Part shown: positions 3,206 to 11,615 of the stretch, piece after piece
Numbering within the stretch: the first letter of the stretch is position 1
How the letters are laid out: every line of letters begins with the position of its first letter
The notes under the pieces: model-generated
Seen by the model: only the letters and a program-made list of their open reading frames with translations
What the model was told of the DNA's origin: nothing
The model's database searches: none
Program-made: the position numbers and the translations under genes
Source of the DNA: Picochlorum sp. SENEW3
Taxonomy: Eukaryota
Assembly (NCBI GenBank): GCA_034226945.1
Contig: CP120453.1
Location: 248,001 to 312,000 of the forward strand
DNA length: 64,000 nt
Direction of reading: 5' to 3'

Positions 3206-4921
3206 GTGATGAATATTTCTGTATCCATCATCAGTCCCTCGAGGGCATTGTCGCTCTTTGATCGGCAGGGAATTGAAAAATGTCGACAGTCTGTACCAAG
3301 AACAACGTGTATTCCATGTGGGCGGAACAAGAGGACCAAGACATTCTCATCTGCGACTGATTCTCCCAGTACATCAACTAGTTGGAATGACTATAGTAGT
3401 TGGCCGAGCGAGGCAGCACGTCGTACGGCATTTGGAACAACCCCAGGGGAGATTGTCAACCACAGAGTTTCCGAGATTCGGGGTTCATTGCCTTCCTGGC
3501 TGCATGGGACGTATTATAGAAATGGTCCTGGTACATATGAGAATGGAACTGATGGAGGGATGTTGCATTTGTTTGACGGGTATGGCATGGTTGTCAAAAT
3601 CGACATGGATGGGAGGACGAACGAGGCGACGATTTCGAATGCATTCGTCAAGTCCAAGGCATATACGAGGTATAAAGAAACAGGTGTGATGGAGTGGAGG
3701 GAATTTGGGACGCCCAAGGTGATGGGTGGTGTGCTGGAGGAGATTCGGAATGTTGTGAGGACAATTGTTGGGAGCATTGGGATTGGGCAAGGGGTGACGG
3801 ATAATGCGTCGGTGCACGTGATTCCGAGGGGAACTGAGATGTGGGCGATGACAGAGACGGTACCTGGGACGTATCGGATTGATCCAGAGACCCTGGAGAC
3901 CATGGGGCGAGTGGAGTATGATGACAGCATGGAGGGAACGCTGACCACAGCACACCCGCATGTCCTCAGCGATGGGCGTCTCGTAAATATACTCTCCGAG
4001 CCCGGGAAGGGATTCACAGTGTATGTGTGTGATGGGAATGTGAGAGAAAAGATTGCGTATGTTCCGCATGCGAGGCCATTAAGCCCAGCGTGGATTCATG
4101 ATTTCCCAGGAACCGACAGCTGCATTGTCATTCCAGAGATGCCCTTGTACTTTAATTTATCGGCATTGACGCTTGGTACGAATGCGTCTCATTTATTTTT
4201 AGATTGGATACCAGAGGATGGGACAACTCTGCATATCGTGGATGTGGCCAGCGGGTCTGTGCATCGTGTCAAGGATGTGCCTCCTTGCTTTGTCTTCCAC
4301 TGGGCCAATGCCTTCACCTCGGGTGACGATGGTCAATACCTGAACATTGATGCGACTGTATATGATGATCCGGATATCGTGAAATATCTTTTATTGGATT
4401 CCGTTCGGGCAGGGCCGGATGCTGGACGGGAACTTCCCCCGAGTGCCCTGAGGAGATTGGTGCTGGAACGGTTGCCGAGTGGAGATTTCTCTCTGGTCCG
4501 CAGCAAGGATGATGCATGGCACCGACTGTCGAATGATGAGAATCGAGATTTTGGAAATTTCACGGATTTTCCCACCGTCAATCCGTCGAAAAAAGGCAAA
4601 CAGCACCGCTACGTGTGGGTCTCTGCTGCACAGAGACCCACAAACGTAACGAATGCATTGGTCAAATTTGATACTGAAACATCCCATGCCCTGCGATGGC
4701 ATGAGCCTGGATCCCTCCCTGGAGAGCCATGCTTTGTTCAAAATCCATCGAGTGATGGCGAAGATGACGGCGTGATCTTGTCGATGCTGATTGAAGGCGA
4801 TTCTGGGGCATCCAGCGTGCTTGTCCTTGACGCCAAGTCCATGACGGAGCTGGCACGAATCCCATGCCCAATTCCAATAACCTCGGGATTCCATGGATCA
4901 TTCGTTTCTCATAGTTTTTAA
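3206..4921 (+). CDS. Carotenoid cleavage dioxygenase (RPE65 family), CCD8-like
   Basis: YRNGPG, HLFDGY, TDNA and EPCFV motifs; four Fe-binding His (TAHP, WIHDF, FHWAN, GFHG); transit-peptide-like N-terminus. Confidence 0.88.
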   Translation: MMNISVSIISPSRALSLFDRQGIEKCRQSVPRTTCIPCGRNKRTKTFSSATDSPSTSTSWNDYSSWPSEAARRTAFGTTPGEIVNHRVSEIRGSLPSWLHGTYYRNGPGTYENGTDGGMLHLFDGYGMVVKIDMDGRTNEATISNAFVKSKAYTRYKETGVMEWREFGTPKVMGGVLEEIRNVVRTIVGSIGIGQGVTDNASVHVIPRGTEMWAMTETVPGTYRIDPETLETMGRVEYDDSMEGTLTTAHPHVLSDGRLVNILSEPGKGFTVYVCDGNVREKIAYVPHARPLSPAWIHDFPGTDSCIVIPEMPLYFNLSALTLGTNASHLFLDWIPEDGTTLHIVDVASGSVHRVKDVPPCFVFHWANAFTSGDDGQYLNIDATVYDDPDIVKYLLLDSVRAGPDAGRELPPSALRRLVLERLPSGDFSLVRSKDDAWHRLSNDENRDFGNFTDFPTVNPSKKGKQHRYVWVSAAQRPTNVTNALVKFDTETSHALRWHEPGSLPGEPCFVQNPSSDGEDDGVILSMLIEGDSGASSVLVLDAKSMTELARIPCPIPITSGFHGSFVSHSF

Positions 4922-6255: not shown

Positions 6256-6783
6256 TCACAGAGTCTTGTAAGGATAAATGTCGCCAATAGAGACTATCAC
6301 TCCATCCATACTCTTGTCCAACACAATCCTACTACCCAAACGAGAGTGTTCATCCAACGCATATGGATCAGCAACCTCCTTCATCCACTGCTCATCATCC
6401 CCACGAGGAGCAGGAATTGCATCAAACAACTCTGTTGGAATCTTCACATGAGCTTCCACTCGGCCCCTGCCCTCTGGACTATCTGCTACCGCTGCACCAT
6501 TAATTGAACAATACACATGATATATAGTTCCACTCTGTATATGGATGCACAGAACCGTACCTTGAGGACCCAGGACGTCTGAATGCTCCCGAATCAACTC
6601 GGCTAAAGTCTGCCCTTCAATCCCGGTGAAGGAGTGCCGATGTCCCTCTCCATCAATAACCTTGATATGAACAAGATGGTCATAGACGGTGCTCGTTGCC
6701 ATGGAGCGTAATGGGTTTCCTGCCAGGCTCCATTGCCGCACCAATCTCCCAATGGAAGAGGCGATGCGCTGCTCTTGTACCAT
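6256..6783 (-). CDS. Mitochondrial ferredoxin-fold protein, complex I bridge C1-FDX-like; probable in-frame intron 6492-6560
   Basis: Adrenodoxin-type IDGEGHRHSFTGIEGQTL and HSRLGSRIVL motifs. A 69-nt GTACGG..TGCAG intron removes a non-homologous segment. Confidence 0.7.
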   Translation of the reverse strand: MVQEQRIASSIGRLVRQWSLAGNPLRSMATSTVYDHLVHIKVIDGEGHRHSFTGIEGQTLAELIREHSDVLGPQGTVLCIHIQSGTIYHVYCSINGAAVADSPEGRGRVEAHVKIPTELFDAIPAPRGDDEQWMKEVADPYALDEHSRLGSRIVLDKSMDGVIVSIGDIYPYKTL

Positions 6784-7150
6784 GGTAGTGATACTAAATT
6801 ATCAAAGAAGGAGGTGGGTGCTTCTTCCATGGCCGATGCCATGTATTCGGCGGATTCGGGAATGAAATCTATATTCATATTACGGAGTTGACTCCGGGAG
6901 GGGGATGCGAGACCACGGGTACAACCCTGCATAAGGAGCCTTGCGGGCTGTATAAAAAACGAATACGGATATTTCTGTGAACAAGGTGCAATCTGGTATA
7001 CCTGCAGATAAGAAAGAACGCGTAGACGAGCCAACCTTGTTTGTGAACGCTCGAACACGACGGCACCGTCTCATACTCTCTGTATACAAACGCGCTTACG
7101 CTTATATCTATTTTTCTTCTTCTCATGGGTGTTGTATGTGAGGGACCGCG

Positions 7151-9217
7151 TTGATGGATGAAAACGGGAACCCAGGCACGGTAGTCTCATCCATGAACAA
7201 CAGTATGGGTGGTGGGGATGGCGTCGAGGGTATGGAGCAGAGGTTGACGTCCTGTATAGAAAAGGCTCTTCAGGGGGTGGTGGTGGAACGTCAAGAGCAT
7301 GAAGGGCCTTCGTCAGGTGGAGATGCGCGTGAGGTGGATGCGTCGCAGCCAGCCACAGATATTGCTAGTGCGTTGGCGCACCAGACTCGTCATGGCTTGC
7401 GTCCTGAAGATATCCATGTGTTGGTCGTGGATGATGAGCGTATGTCAAGGACGATTGTATCGTCTCTTTTGAAAAAATGCAAGTATTCTGTGACAACAGC
7501 AGAGGATGGAGCTGAGGCTATGGAGTTGTTGAGGTCACACCCTCCTGGGACGTTTCATCTGGTTTTGACGGATGTTCAGATGCCTCACATGAACGGATTG
7601 GAGTTACTGCAGTATATTAGAAGTGAGGAAACGCTGCGCTGTGTCCCAGTGGTGATGATGTCGTCGTATGATAACGGCAATGTGGTGTATGATTGTGTGG
7701 AGGGTGGAGCTGAAGAGTACTTGGTGAAGCCAGTCACGCAAAAGGAGGTGCAGCGCATTTGGCAGCATGTATTGAAGAAACGAAGTGTGGCGACGACGGT
7801 GCCGCAGGCGGATGCGAAAATGATGCAGAATGTGGCATTGGCAAAGGAGGTTGACACGTGTACGAGTGGTGAGACTGGCCGGGAGAGCAAGAGTACTGTG
7901 ACAAGCGACTTTTTGAAAATGATGAGGAACAAACGAATTCAAGAGATTGCCGAGCTGAGGAGTCAAGTGAGCCAGCTTGAGAAGGACTGCAGCTTGGTGG
8001 AACGTATATGTGGCATGGAAATGAATGGTCATGGTGGAAAACGCCAAAAGTTTGACTCGGCAGTACTGGATAAAAAGAAGGAATTGGATAATGTGTACTT
8101 TACCAAAATACACAATGAACACAAAGAAGATGCATTGAAGCATTTTGCAAGAGATTTGAATGTGATGTCGCAGATGAATGCCTTCAATGTGACATCTGTG
8201 ATTCGCTCAGGGAATATGGCAAACCCGCAGGAAATGGTTTGCTGTGCGGATTTCGATGCAGATGATTTGCATTTTGCTACTGTGTCAGTATCTCGATCTG
8301 TCAAGGTGTTTGATTTCGAAAGTATGATGACTGCTCCAGATGCCTTGCAGTTTCCAGTGTGGCAGGCAACGACACGGGCAAAATTGAGTTCAGTTTCTTG
8401 GAATTCTTACATTCGATCTCATTTGATCACATCCGATTATGATGGATGCGTTCAGTTGTGGGATGTTTCCAGTGGGGCGACGAACGAGTTGACCCAGTTT
8501 GAGGAGCATTCAAAAAGAATTTGGAGCATTGATTTTTCTCGGTTGGATCCTCTCCAGTTTGCGTCTGCATCGGATGATTCCACCGTCAGACTTTGGAATT
8601 TACAGCAGTCTTCATCCATCGACTGTTTGAAAACCCCAGCGAATGCATGCTCTGTACATTTCTGTCCCTTCAAAGCAACAACTCTTGCTGTTGCGTGCGC
8701 AAATCATAATAGTTACATATTTGATACTCGCAAAACTGCAAGTCCAATTGCAGTGCTCACGGGAGCAAGTCGAGCCGTGTCGTATGTTCGGTTTTTGGAT
8801 CGCCATACTGTTATTGGTGCATCCACAGACAATACTGTTCGCGCATGGAATCTGGACACGGAAGGAGATGTGGTGCCACCTGCAGAAGAGTACAATGGCC
8901 ATGCCAACGAGAGAAATTTCGTTGGACTGAGTGTCCATCAGGACGGATTTATCGCCACGGGATCAGAAGACAACTCTGTCTGCTGTTATTATAGAGCATT
9001 TCCATTCCCCATCACCCAACACATGATTGACGCTGGCGATTCCGAGTCCGACAAAAAGCCCATGAGCTCAAACAACCCCAGAACATTTGTGAGCTCAGTT
9101 TCATGGGCGCGCCATTCAAAGCATCTCTTGGTAGGAAACAGCGAAGGCGTGCTCCAAGTATTACACATGAAAGAATTCAAGAACGATATGAATATGAATA
9201 CTACTTTGCCAAAATGA
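7151..9217 (+). CDS. Response-regulator receiver + coiled coil + COP1/SPA-type WD40 fusion protein
   Basis: Receiver motifs VLVVDDE, LVLTDVQMP, VVMMSS and YLVKP. WD40 motifs KLSSVSWNSY, SDYDGCVQLWD, EHSKRIWSIDFS, ASTDNT, GHANERNFVGL and GSEDN are typical of COP1/SPA. First ATG at 7154. Confidence 0.88.
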   Translation: MMDENGNPGTVVSSMNNSMGGGDGVEGMEQRLTSCIEKALQGVVVERQEHEGPSSGGDAREVDASQPATDIASALAHQTRHGLRPEDIHVLVVDDERMSRTIVSSLLKKCKYSVTTAEDGAEAMELLRSHPPGTFHLVLTDVQMPHMNGLELLQYIRSEETLRCVPVVMMSSYDNGNVVYDCVEGGAEEYLVKPVTQKEVQRIWQHVLKKRSVATTVPQADAKMMQNVALAKEVDTCTSGETGRESKSTVTSDFLKMMRNKRIQEIAELRSQVSQLEKDCSLVERICGMEMNGHGGKRQKFDSAVLDKKKELDNVYFTKIHNEHKEDALKHFARDLNVMSQMNAFNVTSVIRSGNMANPQEMVCCADFDADDLHFATVSVSRSVKVFDFESMMTAPDALQFPVWQATTRAKLSSVSWNSYIRSHLITSDYDGCVQLWDVSSGATNELTQFEEHSKRIWSIDFSRLDPLQFASASDDSTVRLWNLQQSSSIDCLKTPANACSVHFCPFKATTLAVACANHNSYIFDTRKTASPIAVLTGASRAVSYVRFLDRHTVIGASTDNTVRAWNLDTEGDVVPPAEEYNGHANERNFVGLSVHQDGFIATGSEDNSVCCYYRAFPFPITQHMIDAGDSESDKKPMSSNNPRTFVSSVSWARHSKHLLVGNSEGVLQVLHMKEFKNDMNMNTTLPK

Positions 9218-9383
9218 TTGCTCCTTTCCTTCTTTTTTTTTTTCTTCTTCTAGCTTCTGTGTAAATAAAGGAATGCATATTCTTTTTCTTCTGAATTGTA
9301 TGAAACACATTTTGTCGTCTGAAATTCATGTTGGCCATCGTTTTTTGCGTCATTTTTGAGGGTCGGGAAAAGACATTTTTGAG

Positions 9384-9390
9384 TATATAA
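9384..9390 (+). promoter_or_regulatory. TATA box upstream of the permuted tRNA gene
   Basis: TATATAA starts 27 nt before the GAACA that begins the putative leader (9411). Confidence 0.6.
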
Positions 9391-9431
9391 TCCAGAGAAA
9401 ATTCGGAAACGAACAGCCGATTTTGCTAACA

Positions 9432-9537
9432 TGCAGAGGGTCGGGGGTTCGATTCCTCCCAGCTCCACGTTTCGAGGGTATCAACATTATCCGAAGCATT
9501 TGGGGCTGTGGTTTAGTGGGATAACATCTGCTTCGCA
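9432..9537 (+). tRNA. Circularly permuted tRNA-Ala(CGC): 3' half 9432-9467, spacer 9468-9501, 5' half 9502-9537, junction at 37/38
   Basis: 5' half GGGGCTGTGGTTTAGTGGGATAACATCTGCTTCGCA; 3' half TGCAGAGGGTCGGGGGTTCGATTCCTCCCAGCTCCA. Acceptor stem GGGGCTG/CAGCTCC with the G3:U70 Ala identity pair, anticodon stem TCTGC/GCAGA, T arm GGGGG-TTCGATT-CCTCC, anticodon CGC at 9534-9536. Confidence 0.92.
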
Positions 9538-9543
9538 GCCGGC

Positions 9544-9549
9544 TTTTTT
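9544..9549 (+). terminator. Pol III oligo-T terminator
   Basis: TTTTTT just after the tRNA 5' half and its short trailer. Confidence 0.7.
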
Positions 9550-11615
9550 AATCTTTTGCATCATTGTCTTCTTCTATACGTTTATATTCATCTGTAGTCG
9601 CATTACAAGTCGATTTTGACCAAGAGAGTCTCACATCTCCAAACATATCTTCTATGTCCGGTCAAACGTTCCTTTTGATGCGATACATTTACCGTCTCAG
9701 GGAAAGCTTCCCACGATCCCTTTAAAAAGAGCCTTTGACAGGGGCTGTCAATCGAATTCGCGAATTTGAATTTACCCGCCTTGAAGGACAGACTATTCGA
9801 GAATCAATCAGCAAAACTCCGCCATCATGAGGCACTCCAGCATGTAATAGTCCTCCAATTCATACCATATATCCAACAACAGTAGTAACTATTCTCTGTT
9901 TAGGTACCGACTGTCTTTTCTTCTTCTCAAGTGTTGAGAGTAGAGCAGAGTAGTCGAACGCAAAGTCAACTTCAAACCGAAACTCTTGTACGTGCAATCG
10001 TATGTGCTTAGTAACACATATATATGTATATATTTGGCTGGAATCTATTTTTTCAAGCTGATCACCGCTCGAAACGGTTTCAACCGCGCGGTTGCGAGCG
10101 ACATCTACTACTCGATCAGCTCGAATCAACAATTCTGTCACAAACACTTTGTCGCGGCTTGTTCTATCAAATTCACAACGATTTATAGACATATTGCTAT
10201 TTCCGATATGCAGAGGCAACGGTGATATAGCATAGAGTGCTTTTCGGGTTTTTCTTGCTTTCTTTTTCTCTCAAAACGAACGAACCATGGCCAGCAACGA
10301 CAGTTTCCAAGAAACTTGCGAAAGAAAATCCAAGGATGGCCGCCAAATCGAACTGATTCGGATATTATGGATGGTATGCGATGCGGTTGAGGTCCGAGGG
10401 GGCTTTGATGCGACAATCATAGACTACAGTCTTCCTAGGAACATCAGACGACTGCCTCTTTTCCGTTATACAATCACCACTAGGGTGGCAATGGAACCGG
10501 CGATTGTCAATCAGAGAGTAACAAGAGCGATAAAAGAGCACATGGGTGATATAGATATAGCATATCGTTTGCCCAGACAAATTACAGGGAAATAGCACAG
10601 AAACACACATATTTCTTATTGTTTCACCAACGGGTCTCAACTATTCATTGGAGAAATTCCTATCCAGTAATGATGAAGCCAAAGATGCACTTTCAATAGT
10701 GTACAACGCATCAAAAGACACGAGCGCATCCTGGAAAAAACTGACGCCTACAGCGTGGGTTAACATACGTTTCCAGGTAGGTGCTTACATTCTGTGCAGT
10801 GCTAGCTATCAGGATCTCGCAGAGAATAAGAACTGGAAGCAGCTGGAAAAGAGTTTAGAGAGAAGCTTGAGCGAAAGTGTGGAAAGTGACAGCCAGGATG
10901 GCTTTTTCATGGAGAGTTATGATCCATTTGCTGAGGCAGATCCCTTCAGGTTCGACAACGGTGAAAATCGTTCCCTATAATCCCGATGATCGCATGTGCA
11001 TGATTTCTGAGAAGAGGAATACACTAAAAATTCAGTGAGTGAGTGGAAAGAGTACATGTGCGGTCATGGTGATGAATATCATCAAGGGGATGGCAGAGCC
11101 TGCTCGAATCTTTAGATCGATAGTCCATGATAGTATACTTGTAGTTATGCGCCGCGGTATCTAGTCTAGATATATATAGTAGCAGGGTGGTTTCTGGCAA
11201 TGATTTCTCTTCTGGGTATGAATCATTAACACTGAATTATTTCATGCACTGTTCGTACTTTATTATTCAACTTCTCGCTGTTTTATTTTTTCCCTCCTTT
11301 TTTTCTTGTAAGTAGCGAGTGTAGTATATCGGGGCTTCCTTTTATCTCCGTATCCTTCCTCTTTTTTTATTTTCTTCCTGTGTGGCACTGTTATCTTGGT
11401 TGTCTGTGTTGGGCGAGATGAGGAGCACAGGGACAAAGGGAAGCCCCGTGTACATGATGATCTACATTATTTCTTCGGCCTAAACTCGATGCGATCAAGT
11501 ACTATTACCGAGCAGAAAAAAACCAAAAAAACACTAGTAGTCTTACAGCAGCAAAATACGAAATCAATACACCCCAGGGGAAAAGAAGAAGAAGAAGGCA
11601 TGCATACATACTCTA

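Follow-up and report, generated by a model that had tools for sequence, protein, structure and literature searches.

A Picochlorum gene that joins a receiver domain to a COP1/SPA-type WD40 propeller, best explained as a kinase-less descendant of chlorophyte SPA1

A receiver and a WD40 propeller in one intronless gene

The locus lies in a 64-kb stretch of DNA from Picochlorum sp. SENEW3 (the window; its gene product is called here the window protein). A reading made earlier from the sequence alone – the sequence-only reading – had described a single uninterrupted ORF beginning at 7151. The ORF is indeed single and uninterrupted and encodes 687 amino acids (7154..9217, forward strand), although its ATG is at 7154, with an in-frame stop four codons further 5'. 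The features of the locus, all on the forward strand, are as follows.

7027..7153, +, 5' untranslated leader, of at least this extent; the 1481-nt X3 contig starts here and continues without a gap into the ORF
7154..9217, +, coding sequence, 687 aa, intronless; stop codon at 9215-9217; no joints inside it in run X3 contigs
7154..7405, +, N-terminal stretch, residues 1-84; little conserved, with 30 relatives giving a mostly undefined consensus
7406..7768, +, receiver (REC) domain, residues 85-205; the Pfam match to residues 89-200 is 7418-7753
7430..7435, +, codons of D93 and D94, acidic pocket (CheY D12/D13)
7571..7573, +, codon of D140, predicted phospho-acceptor (CheY D57)
7661..7663, +, codon of S170 (CheY T87 position)
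7727..7729, +, codon of K192 (CheY K109 position)
7799..7804, +, conserved Val216-Pro217 just past receiver helix 5, at a fixed distance in the family
7871..8011, +, residues 240-286, a conserved helical segment with homology to the pre-propeller segment of SPA/COP1; presumed coiled coil
8039..8080, +, basic cluster KRQKFDSAVLDKKK, residues 296-309, a pattern match with the shape of a bipartite nuclear localisation signal
8159..9169, +, WD40 propeller of COP1/SPA type, residues 336-672, from Pfam, solved relatives and trees
8381..8920, +, span holding the VP-peptide pocket residues K410, Y429, W457, H518 and F589, mapped to Arabidopsis COP1
9218..9279, +, 3' untranslated region; TGTAA occupies 9260-9264, and polyadenylation falls near 9279

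Two contigs of run X3 span the gene (7027-8507 and 8478-9279). The second terminates at 9279 with AAAAA followed by Illumina adapter, downstream of the TGTAA that we take to be the green-algal poly(A) signal. Although the record of this run only guesses that it is RNA, we treat it as such because of the poly(A)-plus-adapter end and because the run also has GT..AG joints in both genes flanking the ORF. Pieces of the gene are present in metatranscriptome runs X11 and X13, and a transcriptome ORF marked complete is identical to the window protein at 673 of 687 positions (98%), end to end. Together, the RNA-derived contigs and the transcriptome ORF cover the gene as one intronless message. A further run, X1, is probably DNA and is uninformative on transcription.

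The fusion could in principle be an artefact of two neighbouring genes or of a chimeric assembly, and the sequence-only reading had left room for transcripts that show two genes. Instead, the first of the X3 contigs passes from the receiver through the linker into the beginning of the propeller without gap or joint. The ORF is uninterrupted, and the same architecture recurs in dozens of assemblies made independently, as well as in two transcriptome ORFs that are marked as complete. With no supporting evidence found on the other side, an artefact is scarcely credible.

In Pfam, residues 89-200 match Response_reg (E 5.5e-26) with 91.4 bits, where the cut-off is 30.2, and WD40 is found at 71.2 bits (cut-off 27). 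Among the best 25 of the 33 Pfam families that match the protein, all are beta-propeller families except Response_reg, and neither a RING nor a kinase appears; the N-terminus of a COP1, used as a query for a RING against the six-frame window of 64 kb, matched nothing. Among solved structures, residues 319-671 are closest to Arabidopsis COP1 (E 2.9e-74; 254 bits) and then to human COP1 (2.5e-62). The sequence-only reading had seen a receiver and a COP1/SPA-like propeller in one protein, and Pfam and the solved structures agree; its further statement, that RING and kinase domains are lacking, stands on the Pfam families listed, the COP1 N-terminus search, and the kinase-core profile and hhalign comparisons given below. 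The protein therefore has a three-part anatomy: receiver, conserved helical linker and COP1/SPA-type WD40.

Mapped by way of a 675-aa COP1-like protein (P0399), residues K410, Y429, W457, H518 and F589 correspond to K422, Y441, W467, H528 and F595 of Arabidopsis COP1, the five VP-pocket residues named in PMC6745501, and are identical in 5/5 cases. Land-plant SPA pockets have W467 and F595 in 17/17 rows and K422 and Y441 in most, while H528 is usually Tyr. Between the helical segment and the propeller lies the basic cluster KRQKFDSAVLDKKK, a putative nuclear localisation signal, in which R297 is invariant and K296 is present in at least 90% of 30 relatives.

Descent from SPA and the absence of the kinase-like domain

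The affinities of the WD40 were examined in two trees. A careful IQ-TREE analysis covered 60 WD40 rows, 14 of them RING-bearing, with 200 bootstrap trees: all 14 RING rows fall on one side of a branch that has support of 100/100 and is present in 100% of bootstrap trees. The window protein is outside this RING-bearing COP1 clade, with chlorophyte proteins that combine receiver, kinase-like domain and WD40, and with land-plant SPAs. A quick tree of 97 WD40 rows agrees (29/29 RING rows in one clade, support 100). The WD40 thus belongs, as had been claimed, to the COP1/SPA group, and within it to the SPA side. More closely, the window protein is one of 13 rows in a kinase-less Picochlorum/Nannochloris clade (100/97 in IQ-TREE), itself nested in an 18-row clade (100/99) with kinase-core-bearing proteins of Chlorella variabilis, Micractinium and Parachlorella. 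Its 90%-identity cluster consists of Picochlorum proteins, among them SENEW3 WPT12437.1, 'Protein SUPPRESSOR OF PHYA-105 1'.

Could the protein be a COP1 orthologue whose RING has been replaced by a receiver? Arabidopsis COP1 is its best solved match, in a PDB search that returned no SPA structure, and COP1 / RFWD2 has in common with it the propeller fold family, the five VP-pocket residues and the pre-propeller helical segment. However, COP1 / RFWD2 has an N-terminal RING and WD40s in a separate clade (100/100), neither of which is true of the window protein, and both trees exclude it from the RING clade. In addition, the SPA kinase-like domain is present in the longer-linker proteins most closely related to it, and land-plant SPA WD40s score 260-293 bits (word-indexed search) against 254 bits for COP1 (PDB). 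We regard orthology with COP1 as highly improbable. The COP1-like WD40s of RUP1/RUP2 are much more distant (RUP2, 8gqe, against residues 319-671: E 2.3e-42, 149 bits vs 254 for COP1). The window protein, with 687 aa, a receiver and a linker, also differs in build from RUP, a propeller-only protein of about 370-385 aa.

The linker between receiver and WD40, 130 aa in the window protein, was compared to a 431-state profile of SPA-type linkers, in which states 60-260 represent the kinase-like core. The core was found in 26 of 68 receiver-bearing relatives; in the window protein, 0 of the 201 core states are matched, and the profile matches residues 235-286 (E 1.8e-8). By hhalign the linker of the window clade aligns to states 273-394 only, with no alignment to the core, while residues about 240-286 align to the SPA pre-WD40 segment (probability 97.8%, E 9.5e-13). 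The short coiled coil proposed by the sequence-only reading is upheld in so far as the segment is homologous to that of SPA; a crude heptad scan did not reach significance (0.42 vs a shuffled 95% level of 0.47).

A kinase-like domain is the defining feature of SPA proteins; its role has been debated, with proposals ranging from a regulatory scaffold to a real kinase. The window protein has the WD40 grouping of SPA and a pre-propeller segment homologous to the SPA/COP1 coiled coil, and has no N-terminal Ser/Thr kinase-like domain; it is therefore filed as SPA-derived by descent, and not as a canonical SPA. Land-plant SPA1-SPA4 resemble it in the side of the tree on which their WD40 falls and in the homologous pre-propeller segment, but carry a kinase-like domain and no receiver, whereas the window protein carries a receiver and no kinase-like domain. 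The best explanation is that the gene is a Picochlorum descendant of chlorophyte SPA1, which ancestrally comprised receiver, kinase-like domain, coiled coil and COP1-type WD40. The absence of the kinase-like domain here is a secondary loss – the ancestral chlorophyte form carries it – and this loss is the unusual part of the gene. The ancestral domain had been missed by the sequence-only reading.

That similar fusions might already be catalogued had been anticipated correctly, for both Chlamydomonas SPA1 (PMC6717296) and a REC-WD40 protein of Mamiellales (PMC12704426) are on record. Chlamydomonas reinhardtii SPA1 (Cre13.g602700; CDS about 4.17 kb, PMC6736836) is like the window protein in having an N-terminal CheY-like receiver, a C-terminal COP1-type WD40 and no RING; it is unlike it in the linker, which in the window protein lacks the kinase-like core. 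The C. reinhardtii sequence itself is absent from the homologue matches, and Chlamydomonas-type SPA1 was compared through relatives from C. eustigma and Dunaliella salina (P0124, P0125), which lie on the same non-COP1 side of the WD40 tree. Genetically, Chlamydomonas SPA1 represses photoprotection genes with COP1/CUL4, and spa1 mutants over-express LHCSR/PSBS (PMC6717296, PMC6736836). A missense change in its kinase-like domain causes loss of function (PMC6717296), and therefore a SPA without this domain may work differently, or do less.

The Mamiellales proteins (ostta10g03410, Ol10g03450; PMC12704426) likewise have receiver and WD40. Compared by eye, over the part that allowed it, relative P0041 agrees with the O. 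lucimarinus sequence in print, and it is on the SPA side of the trees. The Mamiellales linker is longer, about 480-530 aa, and can still be aligned with the kinase-like core (hhalign probability 94.4%, E 9.3e-8). PMC12704426 mentions COP1 and SPA 0 times; the present analysis links this 'REC-WD40' gene, until now unexplained, to the SPA family. No kinase-less SPA, and no SPA or COP1 in Picochlorum, is described in the literature searched, which took in PMC6717296 short of its supplement, where alignments of further chlorophyte SPA1 sequences may be given. The 'COP1' of PMC7693036 is a name for chlamyopsin and not the ligase; PMC13765596 does not treat algae.

The receiver as a candidate phosphorelay input

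The receiver is the best-conserved part of the protein: in relatives P0004-P0015 it is 77-92% identical, vs 57-71% for their WD40. All motifs quoted by the sequence-only reading are present (VVDDE at 91, LTDVQMP at 138, MMSSY at 168, YLVKP at 189, IWQHVLKK at 202). The acidic pocket, acceptor Asp, Ser and Lys to which it pointed are retained as D93/D94, D140, S170 and K192, at the positions of D12/D13, D57, T87 and K109 of E. coli CheY, by alignment to which they are numbered; this is the residue set of a phospho-accepting response regulator. Across 51 complete family receivers from several green-algal classes, D93, D140, S170 and K192 are each kept in 51/51 and D94 in 50/51, and at Y189, the site of the aromatic switch, 50/51 have Tyr or Phe. 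The best solved relative is Arabidopsis ARR1 (8xat; E 6.7e-23 to 1.7e-24, with CheY at about 1e-17), and matches in the ESM Atlas that include the receiver part are to generic Response_reg clusters only. The output of ARR1 is a Myb/GARP DNA-binding domain, whereas that of the window protein is a WD40 substrate-receptor domain.

If the receiver is a phosphorylation-independent docking or dimerisation module for photoreceptors or COP1, like plant pseudo-response regulators, then it needs no histidine kinase input. Photoreceptors bind the N-terminal part of land-plant SPAs directly and so regulate them (PMC6717296), no histidine kinase or HPt is encoded in the 64-kb window, and the receiver resembles plant receivers of ARR-B/PRR type. 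Yet land-plant pseudo-receivers are without the acceptor Asp (PMC3041508), which is kept at 140 in the window protein, and the five phosphorylation residues and the switch position are retained almost throughout the 51 family receivers. A CCT domain is not among the best 25 of the 33 matching Pfam families. On balance we think a phosphorylation-independent role for the receiver unlikely.

Just past the receiver stands the conserved V216-P217. A VP at this fixed distance is found in 55/66 family members as against 4/87 unrelated receivers, in the setting VPQFG or AVPRFENGEE among the relatives – in part the shape V-P-x-hydrophobic-G/acidic. It is conceivable that this motif is a built-in pseudo-substrate that sits in the VP pocket of a WD40, either the protein's own or its partner's, and that phosphorylation of D140 through a light-sensing histidine kinase relay releases or engages it. 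Against this, Gln or Arg follows the VP in place of the acidic residue of the published signature, the residues upstream are basic, and Chlamydomonas-type members do not have the motif. ARR1, moreover, which has in common with the window receiver the helix-5 motif IWQHV..KR, also has VP nine residues on, at the same aligned place; the motif thus probably predates the fusion. We consider a pseudo-substrate decidedly doubtful. If it were one, this kinase-less SPA would act as a response regulator that opens and closes an E3 substrate pocket as its output.

A phosphorelay-gated E3 receptor is a published hypothesis rather than a new one, because Gabilly et al. 2019, who reported the canonical CheY-like receiver on Chlamydomonas SPA1, proposed control by a sensor histidine kinase (PMC6717296). 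By analogy it is a reasonable hypothesis for the window protein, and that this kinase-less SPA1 descendant serves as a phosphorelay-gated COP1-SPA substrate receptor is, as a whole, the explanation we favor and hold to be rather probable. By comparison with Chlamydomonas and Arabidopsis, the protein would pair through its helical segment with a RING-bearing COP1; the two would recruit VP-motif transcription factors (CONSTANS-like, HY5-like) for ubiquitination, and this would repress light-induced genes, for example photoprotection genes. D140 would receive its phosphate through a His-Asp relay that starts at a hybrid histidine kinase sensing light (rhodopsin-HK or LOV-HK) and passes through an HPt protein, and this phosphorylation would switch the activity or assembly of the receptor; with the kinase-like domain gone, the receiver would be the sole remaining N-terminal regulatory module. 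COP1, DDB1 and CUL4, like the histidine kinase and HPt, are not encoded in the 64-kb window. PMC10865886 has a table entry for a histidine-kinase rhodopsin in Picochlorum soloecismus, the species from which relative P0009 comes. In PMC12704426, a paper of 2025, every member of the Mamiellales examined has REC-WD40 alongside LOV-HK, Rhod-HK and HPT; for Ostreococcus tauri, LOV-HK and Rhod-HK are the only histidine kinases reported there, together with a single HPT and five proteins with a receiver, REC-WD40 among them.

The protein might instead act without COP1, either as a receptor directly on CUL4-DDB1 or as a scaffold that sequesters VP-motif proteins without ubiquitination. It has no RING of its own and its VP pocket is intact, and COP1 and SPA proteins are themselves listed among DDB1-interacting WD40 proteins (PMC6761389). 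But the DWD motif (16 residues, with Asp-7, Trp-13, Asp-14 and Arg/Lys-16; PMC6761389) is not matched in its strict form at any of three candidate repeats, W436 (WDVS), W481 (WNLQ) and W565 (WNLD), position 16 being variable in the SPA and COP1 sets too. The pre-propeller segment, furthermore, is homologous to the region through which SPA and COP1 pair, and Chlamydomonas SPA1 and COP1 co-immunoprecipitate with UVR8 and both bind CrCO in yeast two-hybrid (PMC6736836). Action apart from COP1 is accordingly given little credence.

Significance for SPA function in green algae

Receiver-SPA fusion was already known in other green algae; what is new here is the loss of the kinase-like domain, which we found in no paper. 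The link between REC-WD40 and SPA makes a COP1-SPA-type receptor one of the few outputs open to the two light-sensing histidine kinases of Mamiellales. In Picochlorum, a lineage of fast-growing marine algae has kept the receiver, the pairing segment and the substrate pocket of SPA strongly conserved while discarding the kinase-like domain – a natural experiment on what that domain is needed for. Since the receiver is left as the only N-terminal input, the 2019 proposal of histidine kinase control over the COP1-SPA ligase becomes cleanly testable with a single D140 mutant.

The gene and its transcripts

The window DNA is compact and intron-poor (GC about 0.43-0.49), with long ORFs lying back to back that encode ordinary eukaryotic products, and reads as green-algal nuclear DNA. 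The features of the locus are as follows, with splice joints from X3, a sequencing run with contigs matched to the window.

Features of the locus (window positions)
3209-4921, + strand: ORF of the RPE65 / carotenoid cleavage oxygenase family, 570 aa (Pfam E 1.7e-98)
6256-6932, - strand: upstream neighbour, intron 6492-6560 (X3 joint 6491>6561; CT..AC on +, GT..AG on -)
7154-9217, + strand: receiver-WD40 ORF, 687 codons, uninterrupted
9300-10500, + strand: downstream neighbour, intron 9988-10213 (X3 joint 9987>10214, GT..AG)

The sequence-only reading had described one uninterrupted ORF, which stands, but had begun it at 7151: the ATG lies three bases later, at 7154, with an in-frame stop four codons before it bounding the frame on the 5' side. 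To the fusion of receiver and WD40 as one gene the alternative is two separate genes, for which transcripts were checked. One X3 contig runs from 7027 to 8507 (1481 nt) with no gaps; a second covers 8478-9279 and, 62 nt past the stop codon, runs into AAAAA and then Illumina adapter. A TGTAA stands at 9260-9264, 15 nt before the switch to poly(A) run and adapter at 9279, and fits the green-algal polyadenylation signal. X3 is only guessed as RNA by its own record; it is treated here as RNA because of the poly(A)-adapter end and the spliced joints in both neighbouring genes. X3 contigs show no joint inside 7027-9279: the receiver-WD40 gene, unlike both neighbours, is intronless. Two runs recorded as RNA also match at 90-99% likeness: X11, with three contigs over 7120-8466, and X13 (oligo-dT), covering parts of 8169-9192. 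Moreover, a transcriptome ORF labelled 'type:complete len:687' is identical to the window protein at 673 of 687 positions over its full length. Given the ungapped X3 cover, without internal joint, and this complete ORF, the two-gene reading is rejected.

The RPE65-family ORF lies ~2 kb upstream of the receiver-WD40 gene. Such enzymes are able to produce retinal, which rhodopsin histidine kinases use as their chromophore; in a eukaryotic genome the nearness is probably chance. A 175-aa ORF at 6256-6783 (-) matched no Pfam family, and no kinase-like, RING or second receiver ORF was found elsewhere in the 64-kb window.

Domains and the kinship of the propeller

By Pfam, residues 89-200 form a receiver domain (E 5.5e-26; 91 bits, the cut-off being 30), and WD40 repeats follow. 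The proposed lack of RING and kinase domains is borne out: neither occurs among the 25 listed of 33 Pfam families matched, all of which except Response_reg are beta-propeller families. The receiver's closest solved structure is Arabidopsis ARR1, with CheY next. Residues 319-671 match the structures of Arabidopsis COP1 (E 2.9e-74, 254 bits) and human COP1 (E 2.5e-62), RUP2 being far more distant by score (E 2.3e-42, 149 bits). Between the domains, KRQKFDSAVLDKKK at 8039-8080 (residues 296-309) resembles a bipartite nuclear localisation signal in its layout, and across 30 relatives the KR in it varies little or not at all.

The trees draw on the 150 top-ranking representatives from an exhaustive propeller search plus named hits, rows being labelled by content N-terminal of the propeller. 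In a quick IQ-TREE of 97 rows, all 29 RING rows fell in one clade (SH-aLRT 100), and the window protein in a receiver-only clade of 14 rows (99) within one of 19 (100) that includes Chlorella, Micractinium and Parachlorella. A careful tree followed on 60 rows and 348 columns, with 37 long-branched or redundant rows dropped; both trees are unrooted.

Clades of the careful tree (ultrafast bootstrap / SH-aLRT)
COP1 (all RING rows): 14 of 14 rows, 100/100; recovered in 100% of 200 bootstrap trees
Kinase-less clade with the window protein: 13 rows, 100/97
Clade adding Chlorella-type sequences: 18 rows, 100/99
Land-plant SPA clade: 9 rows, 100/98

Since the RING rows form their own clade and the window protein lies among the non-RING rows, its propeller is, by sequence, of the SPA kind and not COP1; the suggested COP1/SPA grouping thus holds, on the SPA side, in a tree of 60 rows without any certain RUP row. 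Among the sequences compared, streptophyte SPA-type proteins (the Chlorokybus relative P0050 and land-plant SPAs) have the kinase-like domain and no receiver, whereas chlorophyte SPA-type proteins have both: on these unrooted trees, a gain of the receiver by chlorophytes and its loss by streptophytes are both possible.

Relatives and the missing kinase-like domain

The 90%-identity cluster around the nearest relative holds Picochlorum sp. BPE23, P. oklahomense and Picochlorum sp. SENEW3 WPT12437.1, whose public name, 'Protein SUPPRESSOR OF PHYA-105 1', already puts SPA1 on record; the P. soloecismus relative is 55% identical. These matches assign the window to a Picochlorum (Trebouxiophyceae). 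The receiver and WD40 arrangement is common across chlorophytes (Nannochloris, Parachlorella, Micractinium, Chlorella variabilis, Trebouxia, Coccomyxa, Elliptochloris, Chlamydomonas eustigma, Dunaliella). That such fusions might already be catalogued was a sound guess, and the central idea, histidine-kinase control of a CheY-like receiver on SPA1, is already in print for Chlamydomonas in the available text of Gabilly et al. 2019 (PMC6717296).

Distance from receiver to propeller
Window protein: 130 aa
Close relatives of the window protein: about 125-300 aa
Other relatives: 417-970 aa

Searches with the N-terminal parts of one land-plant SPA and one SPA-like protein of Chlorokybus hit the long linkers; against the short linkers they gave no match beyond one marginal hit. 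In a 431-state profile built from 25 long linkers plus SPA N-termini, the SPA kinase-like core (states 60-260) was found in 26 of 68 receiver-bearing relatives and not in the other 42, which cover no more than 18 of its states; for the window protein the count is 0. When the linkers of 18 window-clade sequences were aligned, the alignment matched only states 273-394 (hhalign probability 97.8%, E 9.5e-13), which comprise the FL..MR...L..D..V helix, KR basic cluster and LD..YF motif just before the propeller. A Pfam kinase family is recorded for Trebouxia and Coccomyxa members and many land-plant SPAs. The simplest history is that the Picochlorum/Nannochloris lineage lost the kinase-like domain once; P0035 and P0122, two short-linker relatives outside the 13-row clade, may reflect further losses or wrong gene models.

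A 2025 paper places a REC-WD40 protein in all Mamiellales, its available text never mentioning COP1 or SPA (PMC12704426). Candidates for it, outside the window, are the relatives P0040, P0041, P0044, P0045, P0046, P0314 and P0367; by eye, P0041 agrees with Ol10g03450 of O. lucimarinus as printed there. The trees place these rows on the SPA side, and the Mamiellales linker (480-530 aa) can still be aligned to the kinase-like core of SPA (hhalign probability 94.4%, E 9.3e-8), unlike the window protein's 130-aa linker, which is without it. Mamiellales REC-WD40 thus appears to be their SPA-type gene. A literature search yielded no description of an SPA without the kinase-like domain and no treatment of COP1/SPA in Picochlorum, though the PMC6717296 supplement may bear on both points.

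Conserved residues and a candidate role

Aligned to CheY, D93, D94, D140, S170 and K192 correspond to D12, D13, D57, T87 and K109, and Y189 lies at the Y106 position. The acidic pocket, acceptor Asp, Ser and Lys are kept as first described, also in relatives: among the 51 complete receivers of 68 family members (17 being truncated or incompletely aligned), all carry D93, D140, S170 and K192, and 50 carry D94. Conservation of this pocket is an argument for real phosphorylation of the receiver. No part of the protein is better conserved than the receiver: relatives P0004-P0015 are 77-92% identical there, vs 57-71% in the propeller.

The five COP1 residues contacting VP peptides (K422, Y441, W467, H528, F595; available text of PMC6745501) are all identical in the window protein (K410, Y429, W457, H518, F589). 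The 16-residue DDB1-linked DWD motif (PMC6761389, in part) fits none of the three candidate repeats, which says little because its last position also varies among COP1 and SPA sets.

Val-Pro (V216-P217, 7799-7804) stands at a fixed distance past helix 5 of the receiver; 55 of 66 family members have it there, compared with 4 of 87 unrelated receivers. Its context in some relatives, VPQFG or AVPRFENGEE, recalls COP1-binding VP motifs, and it may be either such a motif or a feature of plant-type receivers. A pseudo-substrate role is possible but unlikely, because ARR1 has VP at the same aligned place, the flanks match the published VP signature only in part, and Chlamydomonas-type members lack it.

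The CONSTANS homologue of Chlamydomonas is bound by SPA1 and COP1, both of which also co-precipitate with UVR8; in low light, spa1 mutants express LHCSR and PSBS too strongly (available text of PMC6736836; PMC6717296). By descent and its intact VP pocket, the Picochlorum protein is most likely the SPA subunit of a similar COP1-SPA receptor. Histidine kinases reported from Ostreococcus are limited to a LOV-HK and a rhodopsin-HK, alongside a single HPT and five receiver proteins including one REC-WD40 (PMC12704426, in part), and for P. soloecismus a table lists a histidine-kinase rhodopsin (PMC10865886). Together with the conserved acceptor pocket, these make plausible a relay, conjectural at every step, in which light would activate a hybrid kinase, phosphate would pass through an HPt to D140, and its phosphorylation would alter COP1-SPA activity. 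With the kinase-like domain gone, the receiver would be the sole N-terminal module left for regulation.
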